DNA of 64,000 nt from positions 32,001 to 96,000 of the IMG/VR virus record IMGVR_UViG_3300044638_008494. The stretch is one strand, 5' to 3'. A program made the position numbers and the translations under genes. The DNA is from a virus. Under the pieces are notes generated by a model that saw only the letters and a program-made list of their open reading frames with translations, was not told where the DNA came from and ran no database searches. How positions within the stretch are numbered: the stretch's first letter is position 1; every line of letters begins with the position of its first letter. Shown in pieces: positions 2,791-41,721 of the stretch.

Positions 2791-2823
2791 AAAAACGCAA
2801 AGCGTTTTTGCGGCTTTGCCGCA
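2791..2823. other. Two abutting hairpins with GC-AAA-GC triloops on opposite strands, in a divergent intergenic region
   Basis: AAAAACGC-AAA-GCGTTTTT (2791-2809) and TGCGGC-TTT-GCCGCA (2809-2823); a T-rich run follows the hairpin pair on each strand. Confidence 0.7.
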
Positions 2824-2866
2824 TTCTTTTTTCTCAATAAACATTATTTATTAATAACATGTTTTT

Positions 2867-2895
2867 TTAGAAAAGTCAATATTATTTTATATAAT
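2867..2895 (+). promoter_or_regulatory. Putative sigma70-type promoter, probably leaderless
   Basis: TTAGAA-N17-TATAAT, then CGGAT and the ATG at 2901. Confidence 0.45.
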
Positions 2896-2900
2896 CGGAT

Positions 2901-3266: not shown

Positions 3267-3267
3267 T
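3240..3267 (+). promoter_or_regulatory. Consensus sigma70 promoter, probably leaderless
   Basis: TTGACA (3240-3245)-N16-TATAAT (3262-3267), 5 nt before the ATG at 3273. Confidence 0.75.
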
Positions 3268-3272
3268 CGTTC

Positions 3273-3755
3273 ATGCAAAAATCTTTATCTTTTTACAAGC
3301 CAAATAGCTACAATAAAGGATCTGCTGGTCAGTTCCAATATGGAGCAAAAGACGGCGATTTTGGATTATATGTCAGCATAGTTAAACAGGCTGCATGGAA
3401 TACAGATACAAAAAGGGGGTCTTTTTCTGAAAACGCTAAGAATCCATCTAAAAATAAGAAAATAAAACTTAACGCTACAGAAGCTGCGGCTATGTCTAGG
3501 GTTATCTTGTGTGATGTTGACAAGTGGTCTAGCGTTCATAGAAGTGAATCCAAAACAACATCTATAATGTTTTCTCACTATATAAAGGATAATGCCAAAC
3601 TAGGGTATGGATTTTCTATATCAGAAAAGGATGGGGAATCATTCATGCTCAGTTTAAATAATGACGAGGGCTATGTTTTAAAGAATTTTCTTGAAGAATA
3701 TATCAAATTCACATTTAATAAGCAGCAACTTAATACACAACAAGAAAAGTTTTAA
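3273..3755 (+). CDS. Hypothetical protein, possibly Whirly/PC4-like ssDNA-binding
   Basis: LSFYKP...GLYVSIVKQ...KIKLNATE pattern with a similar second half (FMLSLNNDE), resembling the duplicated beta-sheet plus helix of Whirly folds. Confidence 0.4.
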   Translation: MQKSLSFYKPNSYNKGSAGQFQYGAKDGDFGLYVSIVKQAAWNTDTKRGSFSENAKNPSKNKKIKLNATEAAAMSRVILCDVDKWSSVHRSESKTTSIMFSHYIKDNAKLGYGFSISEKDGESFMLSLNNDEGYVLKNFLEEYIKFTFNKQQLNTQQEKF

Positions 3756-5707: not shown

Positions 5708-5710
5708 AAT

Positions 5711-6943
5711 ATGTCACACTTGCTTGAATCATACAGCCTTCAAACTGGGGCAAAAATTTCTAAACCCTTCATAGTTAAAAATTTTTACCCTACTCCAGAA
5801 AAATATATAACAATTCATAATTCTAGCGGAATGGGGGCAAAAAATTATGATTATTTTCAAGAAGTAATTGATCATTTGATTCCATTCTTAAAAAAGAAGG
5901 GCATTGATGTGGTGCAAATTGGCGGAGAAGAAGATAGGCCAATAAATGGCTGCATCCATATTCAAGGAAAAACAAGCTATCATCAAACTGCATTCGTAAT
6001 ACAAAACTCATTACTCCATATTGGAAATGATAGCTTTCCTGTTCATATAGCATCTGCTGCTGATATTCCTATAATTTCATTATATAGCGTAACACTACCA
6101 TCTATTGCTGGTCCATGCTTTAATTCTAAAGATGTATTTAATGATAAGGTCTTTTGTTTTACGCCAGATTTTAATGGTAAAAAGCCGTCATTCAATCCAA
6201 ATGAAAGTCCCAAATTAATTAATGATATTAAAATAGAAAGCATAGTTGAGGCTGTAGACAAAGTGCTTGATTTGGGTTACAATAAAAAATTAAAAACAAT
6301 TTTTGTTGGAAATAAATATCAAGCGCAGGGTATAGAAATTGTTCCTGATGCTGTTCTAAGTAGTGACTTTGCTAAAGGATCACCTGCATTATTAAGAATA
6401 GACTTATTAAATTCAGAAGTCGATGATGCTATTATTTATCATAATTTGCAAGCAAGAAAGCTTGGGATTAAAATGTCTAATCTAAAAAAAGTGAAAGACT
6501 TGAATGTTATTTATTCAAACAAAAACAATCTTATAGAGATTGTTTTTGATATAGACCATGGATATGACAAAAAGTATCTAGAGCAGTTATCATCAATATA
6601 CCCAAATGTCATAATTTACTATTCTGGTGATGACGATGTTTTTTTCAATAAAACTAAATTAGACCTAATTGACTTGAATTTAAAATTTTTCCGACAAAAA
6701 AATGAAACAGAAAAAATAACTGATTTGCATTTAAAAATACAATCCGCAATAAAAGACGACTTATGGATTCAAACAAATCGATTAATCCTAGCAAAAAATA
6801 AAGTTTATTTATCTGAAGCACATTTAAGAGAAGACAAGCCATCTAATGATAAAAAAATAAAATTAAATAGTTTGACAAATATATCAAATATGTCTATATC
6901 TGATATAGACTTCTTTTTAATCTATCAAGAAAGTAAAAAATAA
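5711..6943 (+). CDS. GT9 (heptosyltransferase-like) C-terminal half plus an unknown domain
   Basis: YITIH..AKNY..VVQIGG..GKTS...IGNDSFPVHIASA (cf. the GT9 DSGxxHxAxA motif). Confidence 0.8.
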   Translation: MSHLLESYSLQTGAKISKPFIVKNFYPTPEKYITIHNSSGMGAKNYDYFQEVIDHLIPFLKKKGIDVVQIGGEEDRPINGCIHIQGKTSYHQTAFVIQNSLLHIGNDSFPVHIASAADIPIISLYSVTLPSIAGPCFNSKDVFNDKVFCFTPDFNGKKPSFNPNESPKLINDIKIESIVEAVDKVLDLGYNKKLKTIFVGNKYQAQGIEIVPDAVLSSDFAKGSPALLRIDLLNSEVDDAIIYHNLQARKLGIKMSNLKKVKDLNVIYSNKNNLIEIVFDIDHGYDKKYLEQLSSIYPNVIIYYSGDDDVFFNKTKLDLIDLNLKFFRQKNETEKITDLHLKIQSAIKDDLWIQTNRLILAKNKVYLSEAHLREDKPSNDKKIKLNSLTNISNMSISDIDFFLIYQESKK

Positions 6944-19391: not shown

Positions 19392-22300
19392 TTATGCAGT
19401 CTGACCATTTTTAGTTTGTAATCCAGCAATTTGCCTATTAACAGCATCAATTGCCGATGCAAGTTCTGCTCTTAACTGCTCTTGAACTTCCGATATTTTT
19501 GCTCCAACCTCAGCAATTGCCTCTTCAGACATTGATACGTCTATTTTAAAATCAGTACTAATATCAACAGGAAAACTAATATCTTGATTTAAAGTCATTT
19601 CTTTTCCACCATCTTCTACTGGCTGCTGAGATACCTCTCTCTGTGGTGACTCTTGAACTTGCTTAGTTTGTTCTTCAACTATTCCACTATTTTTATTAAC
19701 AGCCTCACGACTACCATCTAATGACTTTTTCAATTCCCTTATTTCTTCTTTTCCTTGCTCGATATTTTTAGGAGGGGCCATCGGGGCTTGAGGCTCAACT
19801 CCGATTGGCGGTTTTGATTCTGGGTTAAAATTTGGATCATAATACCCTAATCCCCCATCTGGCTGTGGAAACATTTTCGGAGGAGGAAGCGTTGGTTTAG
19901 GAAATTGAGGAAAAGCTGGGCTTAACAAAGGAGACTGAGGTGTATATGGTCGAGTTAGTGGCCCACCAATTGGCTGCAATGGAGATTGGATTTGTGGATC
20001 CGCAAATTGACCAACCAAAGGATTAACTCCTCGATTTGTAAATGGAGACGCAGTAGGTGGAACATATGGTGAAACTGCGGGGTTATTATAAGGAAAAGGC
20101 TTTGGAGCCTGAAGCGGCATACCCACGCTACCAGCTCCACCCTCTCCGAAATTAGGATCATAAAATCCTTGACTTCCATCAGGCTGAGTAAATGTTTGCG
20201 GCGGAGGAAGCGTTGGTTTAGGAAATTGAGGAAAATTAGGTCTTGGCGTCAATACTTCTCGCATATTTTCCGCTGACCCACCCAACATAACAGATCCTTC
20301 TAGCGCACTTACTATCTTATCTCCATTTAAATCTATAGCACCTATCATTTTTATAGCAAATGGATTAAGAGAATTTTCTAAAACAGACTTTATAATCGGC
20401 ATAACGTCAGTCGCCATTGTTCCATCTATACCCTTGTTTAACATACCATCTCTGGAAGCATTTGGGGCTTGATATGGCATTTGCGACAATAATGATGTTA
20501 CATCATAAGTGTTTCCAGCCTTTAACTCATCTCTTAAATACTGTATTACTGATATCATTTTATCATCTGATATTTTTTGTCCAGCCAGTAATGCGTCAAT
20601 TGAAGATTTTAATTGTTGCTGAAAATCATCGACATTTTTAATTTCAGAATTTGCATTCTGGCTCTTTTGTACGGCGAGCTGATTTACGGACCGACCAGTA
20701 TCGGTCGCCTCCACTTTTAATTCGTTTTTCAAATATTTAGAAAAATTTTCTTTTAAACTATCCGCAAACTCTTTTCCATACTTATTCATAGCATCAACTG
20801 CCAATTTATTATTTGGATCTGCCCTCCATTGGGTTAACTGCTCTTTTGTCATTGATTGAGACCATTGGCCCGACATTCGACCTTCTTCATTAAACATTTG
20901 ATGTGTTTGATATTTATCTCCCCAACTTAACAAATCAGCACCAGGATCATCTGGTCCGTAGTTGTATTTCCTACGAACTACATTTTGATAATTTTTTTCT
21001 TCAATTTCTTTTATTATTTCTTGAAATGATTTTCCTAATGGGCCACTTGATGCTCCTGATATGTTTGTATTCGGAAGTTTATTTAAAATTTGTTTTAGTA
21101 TAGAAATATTTTGAGCTACAGCTTGGTCTTGCTGCGCTTGAGATGCTTCCATTGCTTTAGCGGCCGCTGGGCTTATAATTGTAAAATTTCCGCCACTAGA
21201 GCCGCCAACGCCACTAACACCACCAACGCCGCCAGCACTACCAGCACCACTAACACTGCCAGTAGTAGCTGCTCCCCGCATTGCTGCTTTTATTGCACTT
21301 GCGGCTGCTGTGCTTGTTATTGGGGGATTTGTTGTGGCGCTTCCTCTAGCATTAGACTGCATACTAAATGCACCGCCAGAAGTTGATGGGCATAATGCAT
21401 TAATAGCTGTTTGCGCACAATTTGCCAAATTTAGTAATTTTTCCGCAGCATTATCTGCTTCTTTTTGTAATCCAGTAAAGGCTTGTTGTGAAAATTTATC
21501 CATATTTATTCCCACATATCCAATAGATTTAACCAGATCTTCAGCTGCTTGATTGAATGGGTTAGCAAATTTTTGCCCAGGCTTCATACCGCCAAACTGC
21601 TGATTAACCATATCAACCACATTTGCTCGACCCAATCCCTTTAAATTACCCAAACCAATAGCATCAAGGTATTCATCGGATTGATCTTGCAACATTGCTG
21701 TTAATCTTGATCTTTCTCCTCTTTGGTAATTTTCTGGAATTCCAAGAGCTTCCATAGCTTCTAATCTTCTGATTGACTGTTCGCGCTCGAACTTGTCCAT
21801 TTCTCTTTTATATTTTAATGGCCCAATTTCGCCAGCTTGGTATGCCCTACGAAGCTCAGTTCCCTCCATTTGTGTTGGGTCAAATCCTGATAATCCAGAA
21901 ACCCCACCAGCATATCCTTGCATTTTTTGCATGCGATCATTAAATCTACCAACTGCAATATCGAATGCCTGTTGAACTTTTTGTGCAGCATTGTTAAAAT
22001 CTATATTTTGTAGCGCCTGTTTTAAATTAAAATTTGCATCTTCAAGGCTTTTCTCATATGCGTCCTGCAGCCCTTTAGGCAATTTTGATAAATCAATTTT
22101 TTGTATATCTTCTATAGTTACAGCTTTTGCAATTTGTTCGGATACATTTTGCAAATCTACAACCTCTCCACGGTTAGCAGATGTTGTTAAATCTGCATTT
22201 TTTATATTATCTTGCAATTGCGGAACAAATGATCCCTTTAATGTATCAGCCGCTTCTTTACTTGCTTCTATAAAATCAATATAACTTTGCTGATCAATTC

Positions 22301-25300
22301 TTGCTGCGCCAATTGCCGCTTCTTGTTCAAAAGATGGGGTTCTGTACTGCATAATCGCAGTATCAGTTTGCGTGGCTAAGCCTAAATTAAATTTAGGTAT
22401 ATCTATTTTTAAAATTTTATTTAAGCTTCCTATTAATTTTGCAGAATTATCAAGCGCGTTTTTATTTTTTCTAAAATTATTAATATAATCTTGAACTACT
22501 TGTGGCAATTGTGAAATATTTTTTCTACTCTGTTCTTCAAGTCGAAGAGTATTTTGATTTTCTTCTAAACGCTTTTTCAAATTTTTAGATAAATCTTCTG
22601 ATAATCCTCTTAATTCTGCAGGTGATGCTTTTTTAAATGCTTCTTTTAATTTTTCAAGTTCTTCTGCGGTGCCTTCCCCGCCTTCTTTCAACATGCTTAA
22701 AATATTATCAAATTCTTCTCCAATACGGACCGCGTCAAATCCTTTTAATTTTTCCACCGAAGGAATTACCTTGTTTAACATGTCTATGCGGCCCTTAGTA
22801 TCAACATCTTCTCCACCGGCATAATCAAATGTAGATAAAATAGAATCAGCAATTTTTTTAGATTGATCTTTTCCTATATTGGTCCATGATGTTATAAATT
22901 CTTTACCAATATCTGTAGTTAACGATTCAATATTTGCACCTCTTGTTTGATCTTGTATATATTTAGCTAAAATTTCTTGCTGTTTTGCAACATCATTTGT
23001 CGCAGATATTTGGTTTTGTATGCTTGGTGGCAACTTTGATAATTGTCGCAAGTATTCATTTTCTGCTCTTGTTATATCTTTAATTGGGGCATTGGATTCA
23101 GTTAAATCACTTAATTTTTCTCTAGCTATTAGTAATCCTTGCGTAGACTCTTGTGCTCTTTGTGCATTTTCTGTTGCTTTTTGAACTCTTTGAGATGCAT
23201 CGCCCAATCCATTTATAGATAATGCTAGCGCATCTACAATTGGCTTTGCTGATAATGCAGCTCCAACTATTCCTCCTATTATTGCGCCTGGTGCTCCACC
23301 GCCAACTGCCGCGCCAGCCCCTGCAAAACCACCAATATTGCCTAATCCAGTCAAAAGTGACCCCGCAACTGTTTGATCTCCACCAGCTATCTGAGATCCT
23401 ATTCCGCTTGCTGTTTGAAGGGCGAATCCCAACCCCAAACCTTTATTTTTTGCAAACTCATCAAACCTTTCTCTTTTAGTCAAGCTTCGTTTATTTATAG
23501 CAGATTGAATTGTTGCTGCTCTTTCTTCAGATTTGGCCTGATCTCTCGCTACACGCTCTCTTCTTTTTTCCCTTTCTATTTGACCAGCCATTCCAGTATC
23601 TGTCCATGTCCCTGCTTGGGCATTATATAATGTAGGATTTTGTCTGGCTGTATTTTCCTGAATATCTAATTTTTGCAAAAGCTTGTTTTGCCTATTTATT
23701 CTTTGCTGGTTAGATTCAAATGCTTGATCTAATGTTTGTCCGGTGGATTTTAGTTCTCCTTTTAATTTTCTTAATTCTTTTGCTCCATCATCCAGCTGTC
23801 CTCCAAAAAATGCTAGAGAAAATAGCAATCCAGAAATTGATGCTGAAATTGCTGTAAAATCTGTTGCTCCAGAGGTGAAATTTGTTGCTCCAGAGGTGAA
23901 ATTTGTTTCATTATCTCCTGCGGCAAAATTTGGAATGAATCCAGAAGAGGCCAATAATCCAGCACCTTTCTGCATCTCTGCAGAATCCTTCATGGCGCGA
24001 TTTTTTCCACCATGTTGGCGCATAGCTGAGGCAAACGAAGGCTGACTTTTATTTCTTACGTGCAAGAATGGCTTATCATCTATTACGGCTTTTTTTCCAG
24101 AAATAGATTCTTCTAAAGCAATAACTTCTTTGACATACTGATCTGATTTTGCAAAATTTGGTATAAAACCAGAAGCTGCCATATCAGAAGTTTTGCGTAT
24201 ATTTTGATTATAATTTCTTAATTCTTTTATGGCCATTGGGCTACTAGCCAGCGACTGCAAATCCTTATCTGATAAGCCCAACTCTTTTGCTCCTTGAACA
24301 AGTGGCTTGTATTTTAAATCTCCGATCTTAATTGCGTCCAGATTAAATCCAGCATTAGATTTAGATCCGTACAGCAGTTCTTTAAATTTATTTAACTTGT
24401 CTGGCGTTCCAAGTTTTAACAACGATCCTTGCTGTATTCTTGCCAAGGCAGATTGTGCCGCAGATCTTTCTCCAAGGGTAGCGCCGCGCTTCATCAATTC
24501 TTGAATTGCTTGTATATTTACAAAATTTGGTATAAAACCAGAAGCAAATTTACCAACATTCGGCTGACTTTCAGATGCAATCCTCTTAGCCATATGTCCA
24601 AATACTATTGGGTCAATAAGCCCTACTTTATTTGTTTTTATTAAACCTTCTGGAGAAATTCCACCTTCGCGCGCCTGTATTTGCGCTTCTTTTGGAAGTG
24701 GGCGCATAAATGTAAAATTCGCTGATGAGGCAGTATCTAAAGCTAATGCTTGCAACCAATTTGGCTTTTCGCTTACAGACCTTTTTGCACTCTCAAATCT
24801 TGAATTGACAATAGCAATTAAAGATTTTTCTACCTCATAATCGTTAATTTCATCTTTAAATGTATTACCAGCAAATCTTTGCGATGTTACCAATGAGTTA
24901 CCAGAGACTCTTCTTAAAGGCAATAATTGTAAATTTGAATCAGTTTTTTTTAGTTGCCTTGTAGCTTTTGCCCAATCTATTGAACCAATATCTCTTAATT
25001 TACCTCTTTGTTGCATTGGGGACTTGTAATCTAAAGTCGGTAATTTTAGAACTTTACTTCCGGTTTTAAACGCATGAGATTCTGCCCCACTGCCTAGATA
25101 TTGTAAATCAGGATATTGTTGATATAATTTATTTATACGCTTTTCAACTGCTGGTTTTTGTTTAATCTCCTCAAAATTAAACGAACTCTTATTTCGTATT
25201 TGCTCTAAAATTGGGCTATCTGCAAAATTTGGTATAAACCCACTTGCCATAGCAAACATCCCTTGCTGGTTTGGATATTTTTTTGCAAATATTGCTCCTA

Positions 25301-28300
25301 ATTTTGCTACAATATCAGGATCTCTTAAAGCTTCTTGTGGCAATCTATTCTTTTTGACAAAGTCTTTAATCCATTGTGCTTGAAATTTATTTCTTCCAGC
25401 CATCATTGGATTTGCTGCAAATGCTGGAATAAAACCATCGGCAGCGCCAGAAGATTGTAACGCTGCCATTCTTTTCTCTACTTCTATTTCAAACTGTGAT
25501 CGCGCTCCTCCCCTTCTAAGAACTAGCCCTTCTTTTCTAATACTTTCAATAGCTTTTATTCTAAGAGCCTGAACTTTTCCAAAACCAGGCCCACTTTTTA
25601 CTTGTTTAACTGCACCAGGTTTTGCTTCGTTGAGTAATTTTTGCATTACTTCATTAGTTGCACCCGATGAGCTTTTTGCATCATACATTCCAGGCGCACC
25701 ATGAAATAATTTTCTTAATCTTGGCGTTATTCTTTCTTGTCTAAAATCAATACCAGCATTTTGAGAAGTTTTTTGTAAGCCTTGCTGAAGTAAAGTAATT
25801 AATCCACCCTCGAAGGCAACGCCAACGGCACCCTCTGCTGCTCCATAGTTAGGAAGATCTTTTGGTGATTTTAAAAAGTTTTCACCTCCTAAAACTTGTC
25901 CGAATTGATTCGCCTCACGAACAAGTAGGTCGCCTAAATTTTTTTTCAAATCAGGGAGCTGGCCTTTAATAACATCTTTATTAATTCCAGCAACCGGTAT
26001 TAGCCCTTTGTATTTTTTGCCAAGATACGAACCAGCGCCCGGTGCCATTGTGTAACCTTCAGAAATATTAGGATAAATAAGAGATACAACCTTGCCATTT
26101 AATGCTTTAGATGTTCTCGTATCACCAAGATCAATAATTTCATCGCCTTCCTTTGATGATTTGGCAAAATTTGGTATAAAACCAGAAGCTGCATTTGGAA
26201 CAACCAATTTATAATTGCTTGGCATAAAAATATTATCCTTTTGTGGAGGATTTTGTTTTTTGCTTTTTCCGTAATTAGTTTCAATAACTTTAGAAATTAA
26301 ATTATCGTTGTCTATTGTTCCAAATTTCACCTCGCCCACTGGTTTTCCTTTTGAATTTAATAGGTCCATTCTTGCAGTTTTTGATTCTGCAACTTGCAAA
26401 CCAAGACGATTCGCAGCAAATCTCTCGAAATATTTACCAACAAGATCATTTTTTACCCCAGTGAATTGTCTGTCCTTATTAACTAATTTTGTATTGCCAG
26501 ATAATAAGCTAGGAACCTTTTCTTTATTTGTGAGCAAATTTTGTTTTAACTGGCCAATTTGTTTTATAGAATACCCATTTCTTGTAAAATATTTAACAGC
26601 AGTCTCTGATAGCTTTGAATCTTTGGAATTTAAATTATTTAATTGTTTATCAAATTGATTTTCAAATGAAGATCTACTACCAATCGAAATAATATCAAAT
26701 GAAAATGGAGAATATGTATCTAAACCCTTATTTGCTACTTGAGATGATTGTACTCCAGTTATAGTACCACCTGGCAAAGATTTTTTATTTTTTGGTTGTG
26801 CGAAATTTGGCACAAACCCAGATGCAGATATTTTTTTAGCTCCATCAGGTAGACCATATTTGCTTTTCATTTCCCTATTCCATACAGCAGTTCCATCACC
26901 ACCACCATAATTAGGAACAGCCCATTCTCCAGTATGAGCCACCATTGTCCCCTTTTTATTATTTCCCATTGGGAAATTTTTCATTACAACTGGTCTATCT
27001 TTTGCTGGATTTGCGTCACCAACTCTATTATTAATATTATTTTGCTCTGCTGCTAGATGCGGCAAAAAGCCACCAGCCGCAGTTTTAACCTTAGAACCTC
27101 TTTGTGTTATAAAAGATTTTCCACCCACGTTTTGCACACCAACTTGAGACGCTGTTGTTTTTGCTATCTGTGCTGCTATAGAATTTTGCTTTTGCAACTC
27201 TATGGTTTGCTGCTTTACAATTTCTAAATATGCTTTTGCCCCAGAAGCAACAGAGGCTTGGCCGCTAGATATTGCCTTGTATATACTAGCATTATTTTGT
27301 AAAAATTTTACAACACTTTGCTGTATTACTGCTTGTTCTTTAGCTGCTTGATTTACCCCTAAAATACTTTTAAAAGCTTCAACACCATATCTAGAAAATT
27401 CTGCAAATAGTTTAACTACCGCTGCCGTTACCAAAGCAAGCCCTGGTCCGCCAATAAAATTTCCAATTCCGCTTATTATTCCGCTACCAATTTTTGCACC
27501 AATACTATCAGCATCAACATTGTTCACGGCACCAGTGAGAAATTCAGAAATATTTAAAACATTTTTTGCAGCTGGCTCAAAAAGTCCACCAGCAATATTT
27601 CCTCCAGCTTGCTGTATATTTGCCAAGGCACGCGTACCTCTAGCAGAAAGTGTTTCATTTAATTTTTCATTACGCCTTATGGCCTGATCAGTAGTTCCAA
27701 GTGATGTTTTTAAAGCTTGGTCATATATTGAATATTCCTTACCAAGATCTCCCAGCGCAGCTTTTAATACGTTAATTTGGAATACACCGCCAACCTGCTC
27801 AGCTACATAGTTTTTTTGCGTTGCAGATAATCCATCGTAAACACTAGCAAGTTCTTTCAATAATTGTACTTGCGTTTTTACATTACCCTCGGCATCTGTA
27901 GATTGTATGCCTAGCCCACCCAAAACTTCTTGTGTTTTTTCTCTACCAAGTCTTGTAAATATAGTTTTTAATGAGTTACCTATAACAGCACCGCCTCGAG
28001 CCGTAACTTGTTGCGCGGTGGTTACTAAAGCGATCAACTCATCAAAAGAAATTCCAGCATCATCAGCGGAAGATCCAACGCGGCTAAGTGCGTTTGCTAA
28101 ATCCGCAGAACTAACAGCAAAAGCAGCATCAACGTTAGCTAGTTTATTTACAATTTCAGTTGCTTGTAGCGCAGATCCCCCAAACGAGTTGATTGCGGCT
28201 GTTAATGCAGATACGCTAGCGGCGGCATCCAATCCACTTAAACGTGTTAAGATCAAAGCCGCTTCTGTTCGCTTTAATGTTTCTTCTACCCCAAGACCTT

Positions 28301-28718
28301 GACGAGAAAGTTCCGTAGCAGCTTCGGCAACCACATCAAACGATTGCGCTGTGTTCCCAGCGATATCGAATAATGAAGCTCCAAATTTCGCTAAATTTCT
28401 ATCTGTCAAATTTAACAGAACATTAACATCTGCTAATTTTTTTTCTACATTTACAAATGTATTAAATAAAGAAGTAACAGCGCTTTGTATCGCAAAGATT
28501 GCACCAGCAGATGCAGCAAAGGCAATAACGCGCGCGTTCGCTGCGGCCAAAGACTTGTCGATTTCTTGTATTTGACCGCTAATTTTGCCCAATGGCTGTG
28601 CTGCGCCACCTGCTGTTTGAATATTTAGAGTAACACCTTGCTTGGCAACCTGATCAATTTGCCGCCTAAGTTTCGCGGTATTACCATCAACATCTACTCT
28701 GATATTTGGATTAGCCAT
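19392..28718 (-). CDS. Tail tape measure protein with an internal cargo-cassette array
   Basis: N-terminal phage minor-tail domain (ELSRQG, KLANVDAAFAVSSADLANAL, IGNSLKTIFTRL); long helical Ala/Gln-rich regions; Gly-zipper hydrophobic segments; follows tail tube and chaperones. Confidence 0.92.
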   Translation of the reverse strand: MANPNIRVDVDGNTAKLRRQIDQVAKQGVTLNIQTAGGAAQPLGKISGQIQEIDKSLAAANARVIAFAASAGAIFAIQSAVTSLFNTFVNVEKKLADVNVLLNLTDRNLAKFGASLFDIAGNTAQSFDVVAEAATELSRQGLGVEETLKRTEAALILTRLSGLDAAASVSALTAAINSFGGSALQATEIVNKLANVDAAFAVSSADLANALSRVGSSADDAGISFDELIALVTTAQQVTARGGAVIGNSLKTIFTRLGREKTQEVLGGLGIQSTDAEGNVKTQVQLLKELASVYDGLSATQKNYVAEQVGGVFQINVLKAALGDLGKEYSIYDQALKTSLGTTDQAIRRNEKLNETLSARGTRALANIQQAGGNIAGGLFEPAAKNVLNISEFLTGAVNNVDADSIGAKIGSGIISGIGNFIGGPGLALVTAAVVKLFAEFSRYGVEAFKSILGVNQAAKEQAVIQQSVVKFLQNNASIYKAISSGQASVASGAKAYLEIVKQQTIELQKQNSIAAQIAKTTASQVGVQNVGGKSFITQRGSKVKTAAGGFLPHLAAEQNNINNRVGDANPAKDRPVVMKNFPMGNNKKGTMVAHTGEWAVPNYGGGDGTAVWNREMKSKYGLPDGAKKISASGFVPNFAQPKNKKSLPGGTITGVQSSQVANKGLDTYSPFSFDIISIGSRSSFENQFDKQLNNLNSKDSKLSETAVKYFTRNGYSIKQIGQLKQNLLTNKEKVPSLLSGNTKLVNKDRQFTGVKNDLVGKYFERFAANRLGLQVAESKTARMDLLNSKGKPVGEVKFGTIDNDNLISKVIETNYGKSKKQNPPQKDNIFMPSNYKLVVPNAASGFIPNFAKSSKEGDEIIDLGDTRTSKALNGKVVSLIYPNISEGYTMAPGAGSYLGKKYKGLIPVAGINKDVIKGQLPDLKKNLGDLLVREANQFGQVLGGENFLKSPKDLPNYGAAEGAVGVAFEGGLITLLQQGLQKTSQNAGIDFRQERITPRLRKLFHGAPGMYDAKSSSGATNEVMQKLLNEAKPGAVKQVKSGPGFGKVQALRIKAIESIRKEGLVLRRGGARSQFEIEVEKRMAALQSSGAADGFIPAFAANPMMAGRNKFQAQWIKDFVKKNRLPQEALRDPDIVAKLGAIFAKKYPNQQGMFAMASGFIPNFADSPILEQIRNKSSFNFEEIKQKPAVEKRINKLYQQYPDLQYLGSGAESHAFKTGSKVLKLPTLDYKSPMQQRGKLRDIGSIDWAKATRQLKKTDSNLQLLPLRRVSGNSLVTSQRFAGNTFKDEINDYEVEKSLIAIVNSRFESAKRSVSEKPNWLQALALDTASSANFTFMRPLPKEAQIQAREGGISPEGLIKTNKVGLIDPIVFGHMAKRIASESQPNVGKFASGFIPNFVNIQAIQELMKRGATLGERSAAQSALARIQQGSLLKLGTPDKLNKFKELLYGSKSNAGFNLDAIKIGDLKYKPLVQGAKELGLSDKDLQSLASSPMAIKELRNYNQNIRKTSDMAASGFIPNFAKSDQYVKEVIALEESISGKKAVIDDKPFLHVRNKSQPSFASAMRQHGGKNRAMKDSAEMQKGAGLLASSGFIPNFAAGDNETNFTSGATNFTSGATDFTAISASISGLLFSLAFFGGQLDDGAKELRKLKGELKSTGQTLDQAFESNQQRINRQNKLLQKLDIQENTARQNPTLYNAQAGTWTDTGMAGQIEREKRRERVARDQAKSEERAATIQSAINKRSLTKRERFDEFAKNKGLGLGFALQTASGIGSQIAGGDQTVAGSLLTGLGNIGGFAGAGAAVGGGAPGAIIGGIVGAALSAKPIVDALALSINGLGDASQRVQKATENAQRAQESTQGLLIAREKLSDLTESNAPIKDITRAENEYLRQLSKLPPSIQNQISATNDVAKQQEILAKYIQDQTRGANIESLTTDIGKEFITSWTNIGKDQSKKIADSILSTFDYAGGEDVDTKGRIDMLNKVIPSVEKLKGFDAVRIGEEFDNILSMLKEGGEGTAEELEKLKEAFKKASPAELRGLSEDLSKNLKKRLEENQNTLRLEEQSRKNISQLPQVVQDYINNFRKNKNALDNSAKLIGSLNKILKIDIPKFNLGLATQTDTAIMQYRTPSFEQEAAIGAARIDQQSYIDFIEASKEAADTLKGSFVPQLQDNIKNADLTTSANRGEVVDLQNVSEQIAKAVTIEDIQKIDLSKLPKGLQDAYEKSLEDANFNLKQALQNIDFNNAAQKVQQAFDIAVGRFNDRMQKMQGYAGGVSGLSGFDPTQMEGTELRRAYQAGEIGPLKYKREMDKFEREQSIRRLEAMEALGIPENYQRGERSRLTAMLQDQSDEYLDAIGLGNLKGLGRANVVDMVNQQFGGMKPGQKFANPFNQAAEDLVKSIGYVGINMDKFSQQAFTGLQKEADNAAEKLLNLANCAQTAINALCPSTSGGAFSMQSNARGSATTNPPITSTAAASAIKAAMRGAATTGSVSGAGSAGGVGGVSGVGGSSGGNFTIISPAAAKAMEASQAQQDQAVAQNISILKQILNKLPNTNISGASSGPLGKSFQEIIKEIEEKNYQNVVRRKYNYGPDDPGADLLSWGDKYQTHQMFNEEGRMSGQWSQSMTKEQLTQWRADPNNKLAVDAMNKYGKEFADSLKENFSKYLKNELKVEATDTGRSVNQLAVQKSQNANSEIKNVDDFQQQLKSSIDALLAGQKISDDKMISVIQYLRDELKAGNTYDVTSLLSQMPYQAPNASRDGMLNKGIDGTMATDVMPIIKSVLENSLNPFAIKMIGAIDLNGDKIVSALEGSVMLGGSAENMREVLTPRPNFPQFPKPTLPPPQTFTQPDGSQGFYDPNFGEGGAGSVGMPLQAPKPFPYNNPAVSPYVPPTASPFTNRGVNPLVGQFADPQIQSPLQPIGGPLTRPYTPQSPLLSPAFPQFPKPTLPPPKMFPQPDGGLGYYDPNFNPESKPPIGVEPQAPMAPPKNIEQGKEEIRELKKSLDGSREAVNKNSGIVEEQTKQVQESPQREVSQQPVEDGGKEMTLNQDISFPVDISTDFKIDVSMSEEAIAEVGAKISEVQEQLRAELASAIDAVNRQIAGLQTKNGQTA
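19882..20235 (-). repeat. 33-nt direct repeat in the Pro-rich TMP C-terminus
   Basis: GGAGGAAGCGTTGGTTTAGGAAATTGAGGAAAA at 19882-19914 and 20203-20235 (FPQFPKPTLPP twice). Confidence 0.9.
23862..23907 (-). repeat. 21-nt tandem duplication (NFTSGAT twice) in the TMP
   Basis: TGTTGCTCCAGAGGTGAAATT occurs twice in tandem. Confidence 0.9.
23922..27077 (-). repeat. Eight dispersed in-frame 27-nt repeats with consensus ASGFIPNFA
   Basis: Copies at 27051-27077, 26799-26825, 26163-26189, 25416-25442, 25221-25247, 24519-24545, 24150-24176 and 23922-23948. Confidence 0.93.
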
Positions 28719-28788: not shown

Positions 28789-29775
28789 TCAGCTCTTGCT
28801 AGCCAATTCGTATATTCCCATGCTTCCCTTTGTTTGGGATTCAGAAATTATTTTATCTCCCAATATATCACCGCCAGCAATGCTTTTAACGTCATCCCTA
28901 TCTCCAAATAAGAAAGTAGATCCCTTATTTCCTTTTTTATTTTTACTGGTAGATTCTACTCGTTTCCTATTCTTTAAAGATTCAAGCCATTGATCTAATT
29001 TATCGGGGTTATCGTAAACCCCATCTGGAATTTCAGCGTCAGAGTTTTTAATTATATTTTGATAATATTTCCCCCAAATTAAAACTTCATGCTGATTTTT
29101 TGTTAGTTTTATTACTGGCTTTCCAAACACTTCCATAGATGTGCTCCCTATATACAAGATATTTTGAAAATGATGAGATATGGCTGTTTTTTTTATTATT
29201 TTAGAAGAGAAATCGGATAAATATTTAAAATAGTAATATGTTGCCCAATCTAAGATATTTTCAGACTCTTCATCTAGATTTTTATTAAATAATAACTCTT
29301 TTAAATCTTCATTTTTAAATAAAAAATTTTGCAAGAAAAAATCAGAAGTTTTTTTTGTGGCCCACTCCTCTGATGTCATTACGATAAAGGATGATCTTTC
29401 TTTATTTAACTTATCTAATTTTTCATGCTCAGAATTAACTTGCTCGTCAATACGCTTTTTATCAGAATCATAGATTAGTTTTGATCTTGTTGTATTTAAT
29501 CTATTAATTGTTGATTTTAATATTCGAATTTGATTCTCTTTTTCTTCACTCCACCACCCATATTTGGATGCAAGCGCCACCTGATCTTCTTCTCCAAGTA
29601 TTCCATTAACGCTGGCTTCATTTAAAAATCTATCATAAATATCTCTTATCTGAAGAGACTCTGATTGGGTTAAATGCTTTAAGTATATTTTTCCGTAATT
29701 TTCTATTTGGTATACGGAATAGCCATTAGATATATCTTCAAAAACGGCCAATACATCAACACTTTGGCCACTCAT
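28789..29775 (-). CDS. Putative tail assembly chaperone
   Basis: Helical and charged; directly upstream of the TMP. Confidence 0.5.
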   Translation of the reverse strand: MSGQSVDVLAVFEDISNGYSVYQIENYGKIYLKHLTQSESLQIRDIYDRFLNEASVNGILGEEDQVALASKYGWWSEEKENQIRILKSTINRLNTTRSKLIYDSDKKRIDEQVNSEHEKLDKLNKERSSFIVMTSEEWATKKTSDFFLQNFLFKNEDLKELLFNKNLDEESENILDWATYYYFKYLSDFSSKIIKKTAISHHFQNILYIGSTSMEVFGKPVIKLTKNQHEVLIWGKYYQNIIKNSDAEIPDGVYDNPDKLDQWLESLKNRKRVESTSKNKKGNKGSTFLFGDRDDVKSIAGGDILGDKIISESQTKGSMGIYELASKS

Positions 29776-29784
29776 AATGTTAGT

Positions 29785-30561
29785 TTATTCCTCGCTTGGC
29801 TTTGTGTCTTCTATTTTATTTTCTTTATTTTCTTCAGTATCAGCGGCAGTACTGTCATCTGCTGATCGATTTGACCCAGAATCGCTATCTTTAAAATCTT
29901 GCCAATTCGAGATTCTGTTTAAAAACCAAAGCGTAATTAAATAATTAAATCTTTGACCAACCTTTATAATAAAGGCTTCATCTTCATTGTCTGGATCAAG
30001 CTGATCATACCAGTCCAGCATTTCATCGTAATTTTCACCATTAAAAAACTGCTCGTCTTCGCTTTTATAAGCTAATTGTGTTAACCACCATTGGATGGTT
30101 GCATTTCTTGCCTTAGCCTCTGCCGTATTTTCAAAAATGTAAATTTGCTCAAGCTCAAATGTTTGAATCTCCCTTTTTGATTCTTCAATTTGCAATTCAA
30201 GTTTTGCTTTTTGAAGTTTTTGTTTATTATCTAATTCGGGCAATTGGTTTAATTTGTTCAACTCGATACTTGATTCAAAAAATGTTCTTTTGGCTTTAGT
30301 ATAATCCTCTGCTTCAGAGTTTGAAATTGTTCCTCCTAAGTTTTCTAAAATAGTATTCCAAGCGGCTTTTGGCAATAGGCCAGCCTTAACAAAGCTCGCT
30401 AACTGTTTTGCGTATTCAACTTCGCCAAGTTGCCGCAAGCTTCTTGATGGTTTTAAAATATAAAATCTTTTCTCTTCATTCTTATTGTTTTTAGCAATGA
30501 ATGAGTAAATCCATTTTTTAGTATCAAAGTCCGGTTTATCCTGCACATCATTATTATTCAT
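29785..30561 (-). CDS. Putative tail assembly chaperone
   Basis: Between tail tube and TMP; coiled-coil with ENTAEAKARN motif. Confidence 0.5.
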   Translation of the reverse strand: MNNNDVQDKPDFDTKKWIYSFIAKNNKNEEKRFYILKPSRSLRQLGEVEYAKQLASFVKAGLLPKAAWNTILENLGGTISNSEAEDYTKAKRTFFESSIELNKLNQLPELDNKQKLQKAKLELQIEESKREIQTFELEQIYIFENTAEAKARNATIQWWLTQLAYKSEDEQFFNGENYDEMLDWYDQLDPDNEDEAFIIKVGQRFNYLITLWFLNRISNWQDFKDSDSGSNRSADDSTAADTEENKENKIEDTKPSEE

Positions 30562-35073: not shown

Positions 35074-36189
35074 TTAGACAATCAAGCCAACTACTGCGCG
35101 GCTGTCGAGACATACGCGACCTTCGCGTAGTTTCATGTACCAGCCCATTTTGTTTGCGCGAGCTTGGAATTGATCGTCAACAAATGTTTGAACTTGACCA
35201 CCGTTGTCGTCAAATGTTTCGACTGGGCGTAGGAAAGCTCCACGGGCCATGTCGAAGCCAATTAATAGCTCGTCTGTTGCATTGGTGAATGCAGCAGCGT
35301 TTGTTCCGTCTGCTTCTGCGAAGGTTTTGCTTCCGGCAAAGAAGTCGAAGAGTTCATTGTATCTCTTTCCTTCGCCAAGCTCTAGCAATTCATGAATTGT
35401 CACACCGAAGATTTCGGATGTGCCAGCACTACGATAGATTTGGCTGCGAACTTCATCAGGAAGAGCAACGTTACCAGCTGTTGTTCCAGCGCCGCTACGG
35501 GTGTTAACTGGGTTGTAAGCAAAGGAACGAATTTGTCCTTTGATTTCTGGGCTAACATAGATATCTGTAAGTCCAGCAGCTGATGCTGTTGATGTTCCGC
35601 CTAGGTAATCGCTATTGAAGCGGCTTACTAGTGTCCAGAGTGAACTTAGATCATCTGGTGTGAATACGCCAGCTGCTGCTGAGCGAATGGCGTGATTTTT
35701 TCCATTTGAGCTTGCGTCAGCAAGAACTTTCATAATAACAGCCCATGCATTGCGCTCTTGTTTTACTAAGAGTTGGTTTGCTGCGAATTCGATGTAGCGA
35801 GCTACAACATTTAGGCGTGCTCTGCGAGCATAACGCTTGTCGAAGCTGATTGCACTGTCGAGATCATATGTGCGAAGTTTGATTTCGCTTGCTCCTGCAA
35901 CTTCATTTGTTGGGAGACCACCACCGACAGTTTGTGACCAAATGGAGATGTCGCCATATCCTTGACCAAAAAGTGTGTCGATTGGGAATGAAGGAGAATC
36001 ATCCTCATTGTATGCTTCGTCACGGTAGATTTGAGCGGCTGATCCAGCGTGCATCAAAACTTCTTGAACGACTGGGCTTAAGAATGCTGCGAAAGCTTCT
36101 TGAGCTTCAGCGGCTTCGACTTTATTGTTAGAAGCCATGGCCTTGATTAGGGCTACTTGCTCTGGTGTATTTTTGAATTCGATTTTCAT
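35074..36189 (-). CDS. Major capsid protein (HK97 fold)
   Basis: 371 aa after protease-scaffold and decoration genes; distinctive codon bias; C-terminal GWYMKLREGRVCLDSRAVVGL strand pattern; followed by a terminator. Confidence 0.8.
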   Translation of the reverse strand: MKIEFKNTPEQVALIKAMASNNKVEAAEAQEAFAAFLSPVVQEVLMHAGSAAQIYRDEAYNEDDSPSFPIDTLFGQGYGDISIWSQTVGGGLPTNEVAGASEIKLRTYDLDSAISFDKRYARRARLNVVARYIEFAANQLLVKQERNAWAVIMKVLADASSNGKNHAIRSAAAGVFTPDDLSSLWTLVSRFNSDYLGGTSTASAAGLTDIYVSPEIKGQIRSFAYNPVNTRSGAGTTAGNVALPDEVRSQIYRSAGTSEIFGVTIHELLELGEGKRYNELFDFFAGSKTFAEADGTNAAAFTNATDELLIGFDMARGAFLRPVETFDDNGGQVQTFVDDQFQARANKMGWYMKLREGRVCLDSRAVVGLIV

Positions 36190-36821: not shown

Positions 36822-37520
36822 TTATCTATTTAAATTAATTTTGATGTTGTCTCCGCTAAATGCAGAAGCCATACGATCTTTAAGAGATTCTACTGCACCA
36901 GCAGCATTTACTACATCATTAGTAACAGCAGCCTCTGCAATTGCTTGTGCGGCAGCTACTTCTGCTTTGACTTCTTCTGGCATTTGCGGATCAATTTCAA
37001 CAGTTGCAGCCGTAGCTACAATCTCTTCATTTGATTTGGCCATTTTCATTTTTTCTTCTTCTTTCATCTTTTCGGCCATTGCTTTTTTGGCAGCTTTATT
37101 TTTAGCAGATGCCAATGTTGAAAATTTCTTGAACCATTTTTGAAAATCATCTTCGCTAGCAACTGCTTTTAGATCTTCAGCGATAATTTCACGATCTTCA
37201 TCTGTAAGATCATACTCTGAATCGATAGTTGACATGCGAGCTTGGAATACTTCTTCAGCTTCTTTAGCTGCGATTTGATTTTTAAGTTCATTAAGAGCTG
37301 TTTCTGAATCTTCTTTTGATTTCTTAAGCTCGTCTAATTGTGCTTGCAATTGGGCAATTTGTTCGCCAAGATTTGTTGCAAGTGTTTCTTTTTCATCAGC
37401 TTGTTTTTTCCATGCTTCAGAGTTTTCTGCAATTTTTTCAGCAATAAAGTCTGTTACTGCTGTTGCAGAAAGTTCCTTCATAGAGCTGTCATTGATTTCT
37501 TTGATGTCTGTTATTTTCAT
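36822..37520 (-). CDS. Nested in-frame scaffolding protein (internal start M298)
   Basis: Internal TGTAAT at 37549-37554, followed by an AT-rich leader and ATG (MKITDIKE) at 37520. Confidence 0.55.
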   Translation of the reverse strand: MKITDIKEINDSSMKELSATAVTDFIAEKIAENSEAWKKQADEKETLATNLGEQIAQLQAQLDELKKSKEDSETALNELKNQIAAKEAEEVFQARMSTIDSEYDLTDEDREIIAEDLKAVASEDDFQKWFKKFSTLASAKNKAAKKAMAEKMKEEEKMKMAKSNEEIVATAATVEIDPQMPEEVKAEVAAAQAIAEAAVTNDVVNAAGAVESLKDRMASAFSGDNIKINLNR

Positions 37521-38411
37521 AATTAAATTAATTGATGCTTCCTCATTTATTACATTTTCTAATTGAATTTTATCACATTTTTTTTCATTCTCTTCAGATC
37601 CAACCTTTACAAGTTTTAAATCTACAGGCTCCTCATCAGGATTGTCTGTTGTGATAATGCCCTTAACTTCTGCTGCTGGAGTTTCAGTCAATCCAATACC
37701 AAGGCTCAAAATAGTGTCACCTTGTAGGTTTAAATATACTGGATTGCCCTCTTCGTCAGCGCCATTGCCGCCAAATGTTTTCAATCTGGCTTTTAATTCA
37801 TTAACAGCTTCGCCATCTACAATTTCACATTCTTTAAGATATTTAGATCCTTTAGCAATATTGAATTCTTTAAATGCAACCTCCCAAGACGCAGAAATAG
37901 AACCAAATTTATCAGATGCCAAATCTCCTGATTCAGATACAGCATCAGCAAAGTCAGGATTTACTGCTCTCCAAATAATTCCAGAAAGCACAACATTAAA
38001 TACTTTTCCTTCAGCGGCTAGTTCGCGCGCACTTGCCTCAGCTATTGGTTGGTCATCTGGAAATGAAGAAAATCCATAATCTGTAATGCATCCAACAACA
38101 TTCTGCCTTTCATGTTCGATATTGATATATTTTCCCTTAAAGCTTTTTGCTATTTCTATACCACGCTCGCCAGAAATCATGTGGCCATTTTTATTGCCAA
38201 GATTTGGAGTATAAGCATTGAATGCAACGCCTAGAATATCATAACTAGATTCAAAATCAAAATCTTTTGGAAGTAGATTTTTTAGCTTATCTGCGCTAGC
38301 TTTAGCAATATATTGGAGATCTTCTTTATCCATTGATACCGCTTTGATTTGGATGCTATCAAAACGCGCATGAAATGGATAGTCTTTTAATGAAATTTTT
38401 TTCTTTTTCAT
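36822..38411 (-). CDS. Prohead serine protease fused to scaffolding protein
   Basis: INIEH (His) and SASWEV (Ser) protease motifs; acidic coiled-coil C-terminal half; TGTAAT at 38427-38432. Confidence 0.8.
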   Translation of the reverse strand: MKKKKISLKDYPFHARFDSIQIKAVSMDKEDLQYIAKASADKLKNLLPKDFDFESSYDILGVAFNAYTPNLGNKNGHMISGERGIEIAKSFKGKYINIEHERQNVVGCITDYGFSSFPDDQPIAEASARELAAEGKVFNVVLSGIIWRAVNPDFADAVSESGDLASDKFGSISASWEVAFKEFNIAKGSKYLKECEIVDGEAVNELKARLKTFGGNGADEEGNPVYLNLQGDTILSLGIGLTETPAAEVKGIITTDNPDEEPVDLKLVKVGSEENEKKCDKIQLENVINEEASINLIMKITDIKEINDSSMKELSATAVTDFIAEKIAENSEAWKKQADEKETLATNLGEQIAQLQAQLDELKKSKEDSETALNELKNQIAAKEAEEVFQARMSTIDSEYDLTDEDREIIAEDLKAVASEDDFQKWFKKFSTLASAKNKAAKKAMAEKMKEEEKMKMAKSNEEIVATAATVEIDPQMPEEVKAEVAAAQAIAEAAVTNDVVNAAGAVESLKDRMASAFSGDNIKINLNR

Positions 38412-39711: not shown

Positions 39712-41721
39712 TTAAATATATCTTAAAATAGTTAAATTTCTAATTGTTGTATAATTATCTATCTCTTCTTCTGGTTTTATTACAAGTATTTTTCCATCAT
39801 TAGTAGAATTTAAAGCGTATGCAATTTTAATTCTTTTTCCACCAACAGGATCTTTTGTTAAATTTCCAACTAGCACATTGGATAAATATAAAATATCTCC
39901 AGCATTGTAAGTTGATGTGTTTACGCCCCCAACAACACCAAAAGTTGTAATAAGACCCTCCTCATTATTTAAAATATTATGTGTTGCTACTCCAATTAAA
40001 TGAGAAGTGTGGAAATCATTGCTTCCAATTGCTGGCCAAATCCTCGGTCTATTTCCTTGCACTCCTGAAATGTAAACAACCATCCCATTAGATATTGTGC
40101 TATTTGATTTATTAACTCCGCGAACATATTGTTCTTGCCCAATATTTAAAGTAACATCTGGCTTATCTAAATAAGCATTAAATGTTTTTGTATCATCGCT
40201 GTAAAAAATTCTACCCTCTTTATATGGGATATTAGCATCTAAATTTGTAGCAAAATCAATAGTATTAAAATTTCCACTCGTATATTTAACAGTTATATTT
40301 TGTGATGGGTAACCATCCTTACTAATCTCTATCCCGCTTACGCCATCTATATCTACTGCGCCATATGAATTATTTAAACTTGTAATTCCAGAATTTCCCG
40401 CCTCAACAAGTCCTGTCAAAAATCCAGAAAGATAATAAAAATCTCCGGTCATTTGCCCAGAAAAAGAATCAACATATCCAGAAATTTGGTTTATATTATT
40501 TGAATAATTATTTAATGTTCCCGTAACTATACCTGAAAGCGTGTTAAAGTTTCCGGTAATTTGTCCAGATAATTGAATAAATGCGCTTGTCAAATCATTT
40601 TCAAAACCAGAATATTGCGCCCAAACCTGTCCAGAAAATGTTGTATACTGCCCAGTTATTTGTCCAGAAAAAGTATCAAATTGATTTTGTAATCCGCTAG
40701 TAAAAACATCATAAGATCCTGTTTGGAAACCTCCGGAAAATATTTCAAATATATCTTGGGTAACAACATTTTTAAAATAATTAGCCGAAGATATTGACCT
40801 TCCACCAAGAACAATATTTAAATTTCTTAAATCATTAAGGCCATTATAAAGATCTACCCCTACAATTTTTCTAAATGGAACATAAAATGGAGTATCGAAT
40901 CTTTTCCAATTTGCAAAACTACCCGTACTTAAATTAAAAGCCGCTATTGTATATTTTATATCGTCTTTTGGATCTCTATAATAAAATCTCCCACTAAGAG
41001 GAGTGACTGGCGTTAATGGGTCTAGATTTAATGTTCCCCATCCGGTAGTCATCGAATATATTCCCCACCGTGTTGCTACAAACTGATTCGCGCTATAATA
41101 TTCTAAAACTCCTTCTCCGGTAATTGCCCCATATTCTAAAAAGAACGATATAGCAGCATCACCACTTGACATAATTACGCCTTGGCTGACATTTCCTTCA
41201 TAGAGATCATGGTATCTACCTCTTAAAGAAACAGATAAATCTTCAGCATTAGGAAGGCCAGAATAAATATCCCAGCCTAAAATACAATCGCCACTAACTC
41301 TAGTTTCTGGTATAACCCCAGAGCTATAATATTCAGTACCACTAATATAAAACGGTGCAATAATTGTTTTATCTAAAGGATCATATAATGATCTAATATA
41401 TATTGCTCCGCTCAATGTTGATCCGGTAACGCCAGGTATTCTTAAACTACAACTCCATCCAGTAGCTAAATAATTTGATGCATTATATTCTTCGTACAGT
41501 GCTATTCCAGTATATGGATATGATGCAAAAAAATTTGGAGGCTGTAAGCCTATTTCTGATGGCAGTACTACAAATTGATTATTACCAGGCACAACAATAG
41601 GCCTCTCGTCAAGAAGCAATGTCTCCTCCCAATCATCAAGCCTAATATTTACACCGCTTAAATATAGCTGAGCTACACTTAGCGTTGAATCAGACCTTCC
41701 AAATCTTAATTTATTAGTCAT
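39712..41721 (-). CDS. Fibre-like virion protein
   Basis: Two tandem copies of an N-terminal domain; 11-residue (F/L)SGQITG repeats; C-terminal IGQE...GMVVYISG...IGVAT...GDILYLS domain. Confidence 0.6.
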   Translation of the reverse strand: MTNKLRFGRSDSTLSVAQLYLSGVNIRLDDWEETLLLDERPIVVPGNNQFVVLPSEIGLQPPNFFASYPYTGIALYEEYNASNYLATGWSCSLRIPGVTGSTLSGAIYIRSLYDPLDKTIIAPFYISGTEYYSSGVIPETRVSGDCILGWDIYSGLPNAEDLSVSLRGRYHDLYEGNVSQGVIMSSGDAAISFFLEYGAITGEGVLEYYSANQFVATRWGIYSMTTGWGTLNLDPLTPVTPLSGRFYYRDPKDDIKYTIAAFNLSTGSFANWKRFDTPFYVPFRKIVGVDLYNGLNDLRNLNIVLGGRSISSANYFKNVVTQDIFEIFSGGFQTGSYDVFTSGLQNQFDTFSGQITGQYTTFSGQVWAQYSGFENDLTSAFIQLSGQITGNFNTLSGIVTGTLNNYSNNINQISGYVDSFSGQMTGDFYYLSGFLTGLVEAGNSGITSLNNSYGAVDIDGVSGIEISKDGYPSQNITVKYTSGNFNTIDFATNLDANIPYKEGRIFYSDDTKTFNAYLDKPDVTLNIGQEQYVRGVNKSNSTISNGMVVYISGVQGNRPRIWPAIGSNDFHTSHLIGVATHNILNNEEGLITTFGVVGGVNTSTYNAGDILYLSNVLVGNLTKDPVGGKRIKIAYALNSTNDGKILVIKPEEEIDNYTTIRNLTILRYI

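Follow-up and report, generated by a model that had tools for sequence, protein, structure and literature searches.

A giant tape measure protein with a peptide-bounded array of exchangeable domains in an uncultivated phage family, a possible carrier of virion-delivered enzymes

Tape measure proteins (TMPs) lie as an oligomer in the phage tail tube, which they leave at infection to pass into the host envelope before the DNA does. Those of lambda (gpH), SPbeta (YomI), and mycobacteriophage TM4 are grouped as TMPs with embedded muralytic domains or maturation cleavage. Here, we describe a TMP gene in which a nine-residue peptide recurs between unrelated domains, located in a 64,000-nucleotide stretch (the window; bases 32001-96000) of the IMG/VR virus record IMGVR_UViG_3300044638_008494 (107 kb, estimated 70% complete, 33% G+C). 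Among described systems, the TMP of phage T5, pb2, is a trimer that is cleaved in morphogenesis between its muralytic domain and the rest, both parts staying in the tail (PMC10038345). The window TMP resembles proteins of this type in that the family places enzyme domains inside a TMP; relatives carry SLT and lysozyme domains, which in two of them (P0100 and P0119) sit in the C-terminal part and not in the array. However, pb2-type TMPs have one or two cell wall enzymes in fixed places, whereas the family of the window TMP has up to 11 shuffled, peptide-fenced cassettes, mostly of unknown or cytoplasm type (kinase, nuclease-like, GNAT).

Three further systems invite comparison. In Thermus phage P23-45, pre-early genes are transcribed by a virion RNA polymerase that forms the N-terminal part of the TMP gp96 (Chaban et al. 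2024, PMC10770324). Both proteins are giant TMPs with a folded enzyme, putative in our case, in the N-terminal half ahead of the ruler, but gp96 has one fixed enzyme with neither a repeated junction peptide nor an exchangeable array, and its sequence is unrelated beyond being a TMP. Polyvalent proteins are giant mosaics of effector domains (restriction endonuclease [REase] fold, GNAT, and others) that are predicted to be codelivered with DNA and separated on deployment; they pervasively carry a metallopeptidase domain, and TMPs receive 0 mentions in their description (Iyer et al. 2017, PMC5512222). Like them, the window TMP unites several unrelated domains of putative effector type (kinase, nuclease-like, and orphan, with GNAT in relatives); unlike them, it lacks an HExxH peptidase and has a repeated short peptide at every junction. 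Finally, the abstract of Nagakubo et al. 2026 (PMC13277306) describes Sle1-type TMP-related effectors of actinobacterial contractile injection systems with an exchangeable functional domain. As presented there, the likeness is a TMP-derived scaffold in a tail-like tube whose functional domain can be exchanged, and the difference is a single variable domain in a nonphage injection system; the abstract mentions no repeated junction motif. Our literature search found no paper describing the architecture reported here, nor the string GFIPNF. TMPs with one embedded enzyme are already known; the window TMP has, in addition, a motif-fenced, exchangeable array.

The gene encodes 3108 amino acids (aa) and was identified by a PF10145 (PhageMin_Tail) match at aa 121-311 (E 6.7e-29; 101.6 bits against a cutoff of 33.2) and by nine PHROG tape-measure families that match its first 400-700 residues. 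On these profile matches, the product is classed as a TP901-type TMP, in agreement with an earlier note made from the DNA letters. Its parts are given below in protein order; coordinates here and throughout are window positions unless aa or record is stated, motif copies were located by regular expression, and P0003 is the closest relative.

19392..28718, minus strand: TMP gene, 3108 aa (open reading frame [ORF] list and translation, PF10145, nine PHROG tape-measure families)
27078..28718, minus strand: aa 1-547, N-terminal domain, conserved (116 of 119 homologues share a single family here)
27051..27077, minus strand: motif copy 1, AGGFLPHLA (degenerate)
26826..27050, minus strand: cassette 1, 75 aa, short opening module (opening-family membership)
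26799..26825, minus strand: motif copy 2, ASGFVPNFA
26190..26798, minus strand: cassette 2, 203 aa, aa 641-843, probable PD-(D/E)xK nuclease (conserved signature)
26163..26189, minus strand: motif copy 3, ASGFIPNFA
25443..26162, minus strand: cassette 3, 240 aa, aa 853-1092, core module with an orphan fold (profile search, alignment, structure model)
25416..25442, minus strand: motif copy 4, ADGFIPAFA
25248..25415, minus strand: cassette 4, 56 aa, small accessory module, absent from P0003 (segment families, P0003 alignment)
25221..25247, minus strand: motif copy 5, ASGFIPNFA
24546..25220, minus strand: cassette 5, 225 aa, aa 1167-1391, minimal protein-kinase-like domain, absent from P0003 (fold and residues)
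24519..24545, minus strand: motif copy 6, ASGFIPNFV
24177..24518, minus strand: cassette 6, 114 aa, aa 1401-1514, accessory module (family of 13 with variable array positions)
24150..24176, minus strand: motif copy 7, ASGFIPNFA
23949..24149, minus strand: cassette 7, 67 aa, short closing module (closing-family membership)
23922..23948, minus strand: motif copy 8, SSGFIPNFA
19395..23921, minus strand: C-terminal ruler part, aa 1600-3108 (composition, hydropathy)

The regular expression [AS]xGF[ILV]Px[FL][AV] finds exactly eight copies in the window TMP, starting at aa 548, 632, 844, 1093, 1158, 1392, 1515, and 1591. These are the sequences and places that the earlier note had listed, and the seven segments between them have the lengths it had given (75, 203, 240, 56, 225, 114, and 67 aa). 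The strict form G[FY][IVL]PN[FY] occurs 6 times in the protein against 0.00055 expected from composition and is restricted to the TMP ORF in a six-frame translation of the whole 107-kb record. The same restriction was seen in 1.6 Mb of related sequence (80 IMG/VR loci, each taken with 10-kb flanks and read in six frames), where the TMP gene contained 297 of the 297 strict copies. With TMP aa 540-1610 as the query, 292 giant proteins (1.9 to 4.1 thousand aa) were recovered, nearly all annotated as TP901-family TMPs and most aligning to part of the query only. The motif occurs 754 times in 119 homologues (3 to 12 copies per protein), with the consensus [AS]-x-G-[FY]-[IV]-P-N-F-A, in which G and P are invariant, N is present in 93%, and the last F is present in 91% of copies. 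By pattern scans, relatives number no fewer than 562 in IMG/VR and no fewer than 518 in JGI metagenomes, from freshwater and marine samples. A tblastn search of the array against 50,697 phage records gave no match, and the N-domain matched only generic PhageMin_Tail regions there, at about 28% identity. A locus search with a single-sequence query also gave no match, and a search among shorter proteins returned only TMP fragments on short contigs.

The segments between the motifs proved to be mutually unrelated, as had been claimed, insofar as profile-profile comparison with hhalign detected no relation among the four large ones. Across the family, segments fall into 173 families (≥70% mutual coverage) whose order and number are shuffled, so that each TMP is a different string. 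The array holds 1 to 11 cassettes, with a mode of 4 and 7 in the window TMP. A short opening module (families 5/10/11/25/27/61) comes first in 64 of the 68 TMPs with a recognizable first motif, a short closing module (families 1/4/19/32) is last in 103 of 116, and cassette 3 is near universal, being detected by profile search in 67 of 80 IMG/VR loci. The array thus follows a grammar in which short modules open and close it and the 240-aa core and a set of optional cassettes lie between them. Cassette sizes are bimodal (50 to 100 and 150 to 250 aa), with a sharp stop near 250 to 300 aa and a 95th percentile of 299 aa, a ceiling of the kind that the lumen of the tail tube, for example, might impose. 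One homologue, P0082, has two GNAT cassettes inside its array.

Cassettes are gained and lost at the motif. The earlier note had proposed the motif as a maturation-protease cleavage or loading signal and/or an exchange point, with variable cassettes between constant flanks in homologues as a test. Homologous TMPs indeed differ in how many cassettes they have and in which ones, whereas their flanks are constant. When the 280 ends of BLAST alignments that fall in the array are mapped, 80% are no more than 12 aa away from a motif center, against 16% expected. The comparison with P0003 resolves one such event. This protein is about 92% identical to the window TMP before a gap and 90% identical after it, the gap comprising precisely cassettes 4 and 5. 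Window motifs 4 and 6 both align to a single motif copy of P0003, which places the deletion junction inside the motif. Identities are also incongruent between modules, with 94 to 99% in the flanks and 74% in the core of P0003, and 53% in the N-domain and 76% in the kinase cassette of a second relative, P0005. The second motif copy of P0003 (aa 632-640) reads ASGHIPNFA, with His at the F/Y position and surroundings that are 97 to 99% identical; it is either a tolerated variant or an assembly error.

Three of the window motif copies share 26 identical bases. Together with the P0003 junction, this agreement could be taken to mean that the repeat matters only as a patch of DNA homology and that the peptide has no function of its own. 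We disfavor this view and consider it highly improbable. When copies within one gene are compared, they agree in their codons at a rate of 0.63, where codon usage predicts 0.57 (102 genes), and since this barely exceeds expectation, the motif is conserved at the peptide level. Its amino acids are nearly invariant over the 754 copies, though the N-domains are only about 50% identical, which likewise shows selection on the peptide. The near-identical motif DNA is largely a by-product of peptide conservation, still usable for recombination.

Taken as a whole, the data are best explained, with somewhat better than even probability in our estimate, by a TP901-type TMP built as a carrier of exchangeable domains. 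According to this model, the conserved N-domain (aa 1-547) and the hydrophobic and helical C-terminal ruler (aa 1600-3108) flank an exchangeable array of independently folding domains, with [AS]-x-G-[FY]-[IV]-P-N-F-A at every junction, kept by selection on the protein. Because the motif also yields a short patch of near-identical DNA, recombination between copies adds, deletes, or swaps whole cassettes and leaves the domains intact. As TMPs exit the tail into the host envelope before the DNA, the cassettes would most likely be delivered by the virion and act before phage gene expression. The T5, P23-45, and Sle1-type proteins described above are precedents for this view. The tail probably carries ready-made enzymes into the host, where the kinase cassette would act on host proteins, as the T7 kinase Gp0.7 does, and the DNA of the host or of rivals would be the target of the nuclease.

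One candidate for such an enzyme is cassette 5. Cassettes were folded singly with AlphaFold2 (AF2), and cassettes 3 and 5 were modeled. With a 10-row alignment, cassette 5 gave a predicted local distance difference test (pLDDT) score of 92 and a predicted template modeling (pTM) score of 0.85. Foldseek placed it with kinases, which make up all of the listed matches with E ≤0.001 (probability 0.98 to 1.00), led by PRPK/Bud32 (3.4e-5) and followed by APH(2''), CDC7, OspG, Rio1/2, CK1, and NleH. In VIA, every row was a kinase fold, with Z scores of 6.4 to 7.8 over 125 to 168 residues; as scores of this size are middling, we base the fold call on the fact that the matches were unanimous and on sequence motifs. 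The latter comprise a Gly-rich loop (G1211/E1213), the beta-3 lysine K1225, catalytic D1328 and N1334, and metal-binding D1369, all of which show no or almost no variation in alignments of 4 and 10 sequences. From the model and these residues, we confidently predict that cassette 5 is a minimal bilobal protein-kinase-like domain with all catalytic residues present, in line with the one kinase-like segment of the earlier note. The type III secretion system effectors OspG (4bvu) and NleH (4lrj, 4lrk) share the same stripped-down kinase fold by Foldseek; however, cassette 5 has no sequence-level membership in the families of T7 Gp0.7, OspG, or NleH. Phage_T7_kinase appeared in 17% of the members of a language-model look-alike cluster of cassette 5, which we treat as a lead only. 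The cassette 5 family is rare: a search of 1.8 billion representative proteins returned only four relatives, of which three are parts of giant proteins and the fourth is 178 aa long; cassette 5 thus has no clearly free-standing relative at that sensitivity.

Cassette 2 likely has a nuclease fold, judging from its sequence signature. Residues E765, D785, E796, and K798, in E..D..ExK order, are present in ≥90% of 20 family members, and sister family 17 shows the same pattern. Three subthreshold leads concur on a restriction endonuclease fold: language-model look-alikes of the Tox-REase-9/7/3 type (0.86 to 0.89), a top PDB sequence match to the REase Eco15I that is aligned on the signature and not significant (E=1), and a Pfam match to DUF6998 below the cutoff (E 0.007). 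The core cassette 3, in turn, has an orphan fold. Its AF2 model (pLDDT 87.5) shows a four-stranded meander followed by helices; residues G966, F969, E970, D991, K1015, and K1027 are invariant over 64 sequences. It has no sequence relative in the PDB, and its fold found no match by Foldseek against the PDB, by VIA, or in BFVD.

The earlier note had called two segments PD-(D/E)xK-like. For the 203-aa cassette 2, this is plausible, as described above. The 240-aa cassette 3 does present E970, D991, and D1013-x-K1015 in E..D..DxK order, with E970, D991, and K1015 invariant, but the confident model has only one short strand at this place, and there was no nuclease among the Foldseek and VIA matches; with neither a nuclease nor any solved fold to match it, the assignment is not supported for cassette 3. 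The two confident models bear out the expectation of globular segments distinct from TMP helices. The DUF2786-like assignment was not supported for the 114-aa cassette 6, for which hmmscan at E up to 10 returned no Pfam family and no PDB match was obtained. Pfam and PHROGs gave nothing significant for any of the seven segments.

What the junction peptide does was considered separately from what it separates. That it serves either for release by cleavage or as a free joint needed for threading is, for the two roles taken together, a little more probable than its negation in our judgment; as a cleavage site or a flexible joint, it would let each domain act, or thread, singly. A narrower proposal, which we hold to be less likely than not, is that the peptide is a dedicated release or hand-over signal, through assembly- or ejection-triggered cleavage or host-chaperone docking. 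In a large and widespread clade of aquatic phages, the TMP would then be a plug-in magazine whose cassettes (kinase, nuclease, acetyltransferase, and many of unknown fold) are freed before the DNA as antidefense or takeover enzymes and traded at the peptide. If true, this would be a phage counterpart of polymorphic toxin systems, inside the tail.

Several observations weigh against carriage and release of enzymes. The motif also bounds long helical segments of 600 to 950 aa in some relatives, which makes it a general junction and not only a fence around cargo. The basal architecture of the family, four motifs around short nonenzymatic modules and the orphan core, contains no recognizable enzyme. 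Of 120 homologues, only 5 have any extra precomputed Pfam match, which leaves the majority of cassettes without an assigned kind, and most, including the core, match no enzyme family. No other ORF of the record or of the 80 loci contains the motif, which is therefore not a general prohead-protease site; cutting every copy before assembly, moreover, would sever the ruler. Family searches of the genome itself linked no protease to the junction motif, and the prohead protease families S78, S77, and S49 were not found there. The window TMP has no HExxH motif and no peptidase Pfam match, and only 4 of 120 homologues have an HExxH motif. The ORF at 36822..38411, which the earlier note had named as the protease, gave no such signal in PHROGs or Pfam. 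The only recognizable protease in the record is encoded by a ClpP-like gene (PF00574, 89 bits) outside the window at record 4287-4781; it lies amid PHP-domain, RNase T-like exonuclease, and DNA polymerase III alpha genes (record 2787-6281) and for this reason belongs to a replication module. Finally, the family is wholly uncultivated, with no relative beyond the generic N-domain among the phage records searched.

Part of this evidence would also suit a structural role. The motif would then be an uncut hinge, or a short collar that forms oligomers and so holds three TMP chains in register inside the tail tube, with folded domains layered in between; the main effect of the cassettes would be on the assembly or length of the tail or on penetration of the envelope, and not that of cytoplasmic effectors. 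The basal architecture, the fixed opening and closing modules, the long helical segments bounded by the motif, the cassette size ceiling near 300 aa, and the trimeric state of the T5 TMP in the lumen (PMC10038345) are all consistent with such a joint. However, the motif copies flanking cassette 3 have a pLDDT of about 50 in the monomer AF2 model and are disordered, and mere spacers would hardly be expected to include GNAT domains, a nuclease signature, and a kinase active site that is complete. Cassettes also come and go between near-identical phages, which implies that they are dispensable for tail building. We regard a purely structural joint as rather unlikely.

A different possibility is that the motif is a docking site, a linear peptide to which a chaperone binds. 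Its partner would be either the phage's own tail assembly chaperones, at the assembly stage, or, at ejection, a periplasmic chaperone or prolyl isomerase of the host that holds the unfolded TMP and passes it on. The linear, disordered nature of the conserved motif and its invariant Pro are compatible with this role, as are two conserved genes in chaperone position directly upstream of the TMP gene:

28789..29775, minus strand: conserved gene directly upstream of the TMP gene, 328 aa (tblastn, 149 of 164 related loci)
29785..30561, minus strand: second conserved upstream gene, 258 aa (tblastn, 141 of 164 related loci)

Entry of the HK97 genome is known to need its TMP and the periplasmic chaperone FkpA. 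Escherichia coli SurA prefers aromatic-rich Ar-X-Ar-X-Pro peptides, and its P1 domain binds the selected peptide WEYIPNV with micromolar affinity (PMC11401910). The junction motif G[FY][IV]PNF has a YIPN core in common with that peptide, but the likeness extends over no more than four positions, and where Ar-X-Ar has its first aromatic, the TMP motif has Gly or another small residue. A complex prediction of the two upstream proteins with the segment from motif 1 through cassette 1 to motif 2 scored 0.01, which gives no support and weighs neither way. We consider docking as the function of the motif improbable and retain the carrier of exchangeable domains as the better account of the locus.

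Neither upstream gene matched a PHROG or Pfam family, and by position only, both are candidates for tail assembly chaperones. The next three genes upstream are conserved in 119 to 126 of the 164 loci; by position, this upstream group comprises chaperone and tail tube candidates. No PHROG match at E ≤0.001 was obtained for 20 large ORFs around the TMP gene (7722-43153, minus strand), and the neighboring ORFs gave subthreshold Pfam matches only, capsid-like at 35074..36189 and cement-like at 39712..41721. Gene order upstream of the TMP is kept in >100 environmental loci despite the lack of PHROG matches. The phage lineage is large, coherent, and unannotated. Its genome-assigned TMP relatives (GTDB) are only metagenome-assembled genome bins of mixed phyla, 6 of 18 being Flavobacterium, Flavobacteriaceae, or Flavobacteriales, a weak host hint that fits the 33% G+C. 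At record 2787-6281, the ClpP-like gene and its neighbors resemble a replicative polymerase module that is split and has a protease gene within it.

Further features of the protein were noted along its length. The N-domain contains 0 His, Cys, or Trp residues and has hydrophobic stretches at aa 57-85 and 417-439 by composition and hydropathy. Inside its PhageMin_Tail domain lies a subthreshold CLP_protease match (28107-28295, minus strand, aa ~142-204; 15.8 bits, E 5.5e-4) that is probably compositional. Cassette 1 contains an internal VPNY half-motif, and its module family, which recurs after a long helical segment in some relatives, has the consensus YN.AE.VK.FPG..QPAIMPP ... GFNPYA, well conserved across loci. 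A 7-aa repeat, NFTSGAT, stands twice in tandem directly after the last motif (aa 1606-1619, ~23859-23903, minus strand) and once only in P0003, the relative that is 92% identical. The ruler part has a hydrophobic segment at aa 1620-1640, a glycine zipper at aa 1804-1835, and a long low-complexity region. Near the C terminus are two copies of a Pro-rich 35-aa repeat (FPQFPKPTLPPP...; 19809-19913 and 20130-20234, minus strand), which is confined to the window TMP among 120 homologues; both copies end in G[FY]YDPNF, resembling the junction motif with an inserted Asp.

Hundreds of environmental phages thus share a TMP with peptide-defined slots for interchangeable domains. With the conserved peptide as a simple rule, candidate virion-delivered proteins can be collected from sequence by the hundreds, mostly of unknown fold, and the family offers a case for how phages may evolve host-takeover or antidefense functions that act before expression of their own genes. 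It may also represent a natural design for loading foreign proteins into a phage tail.

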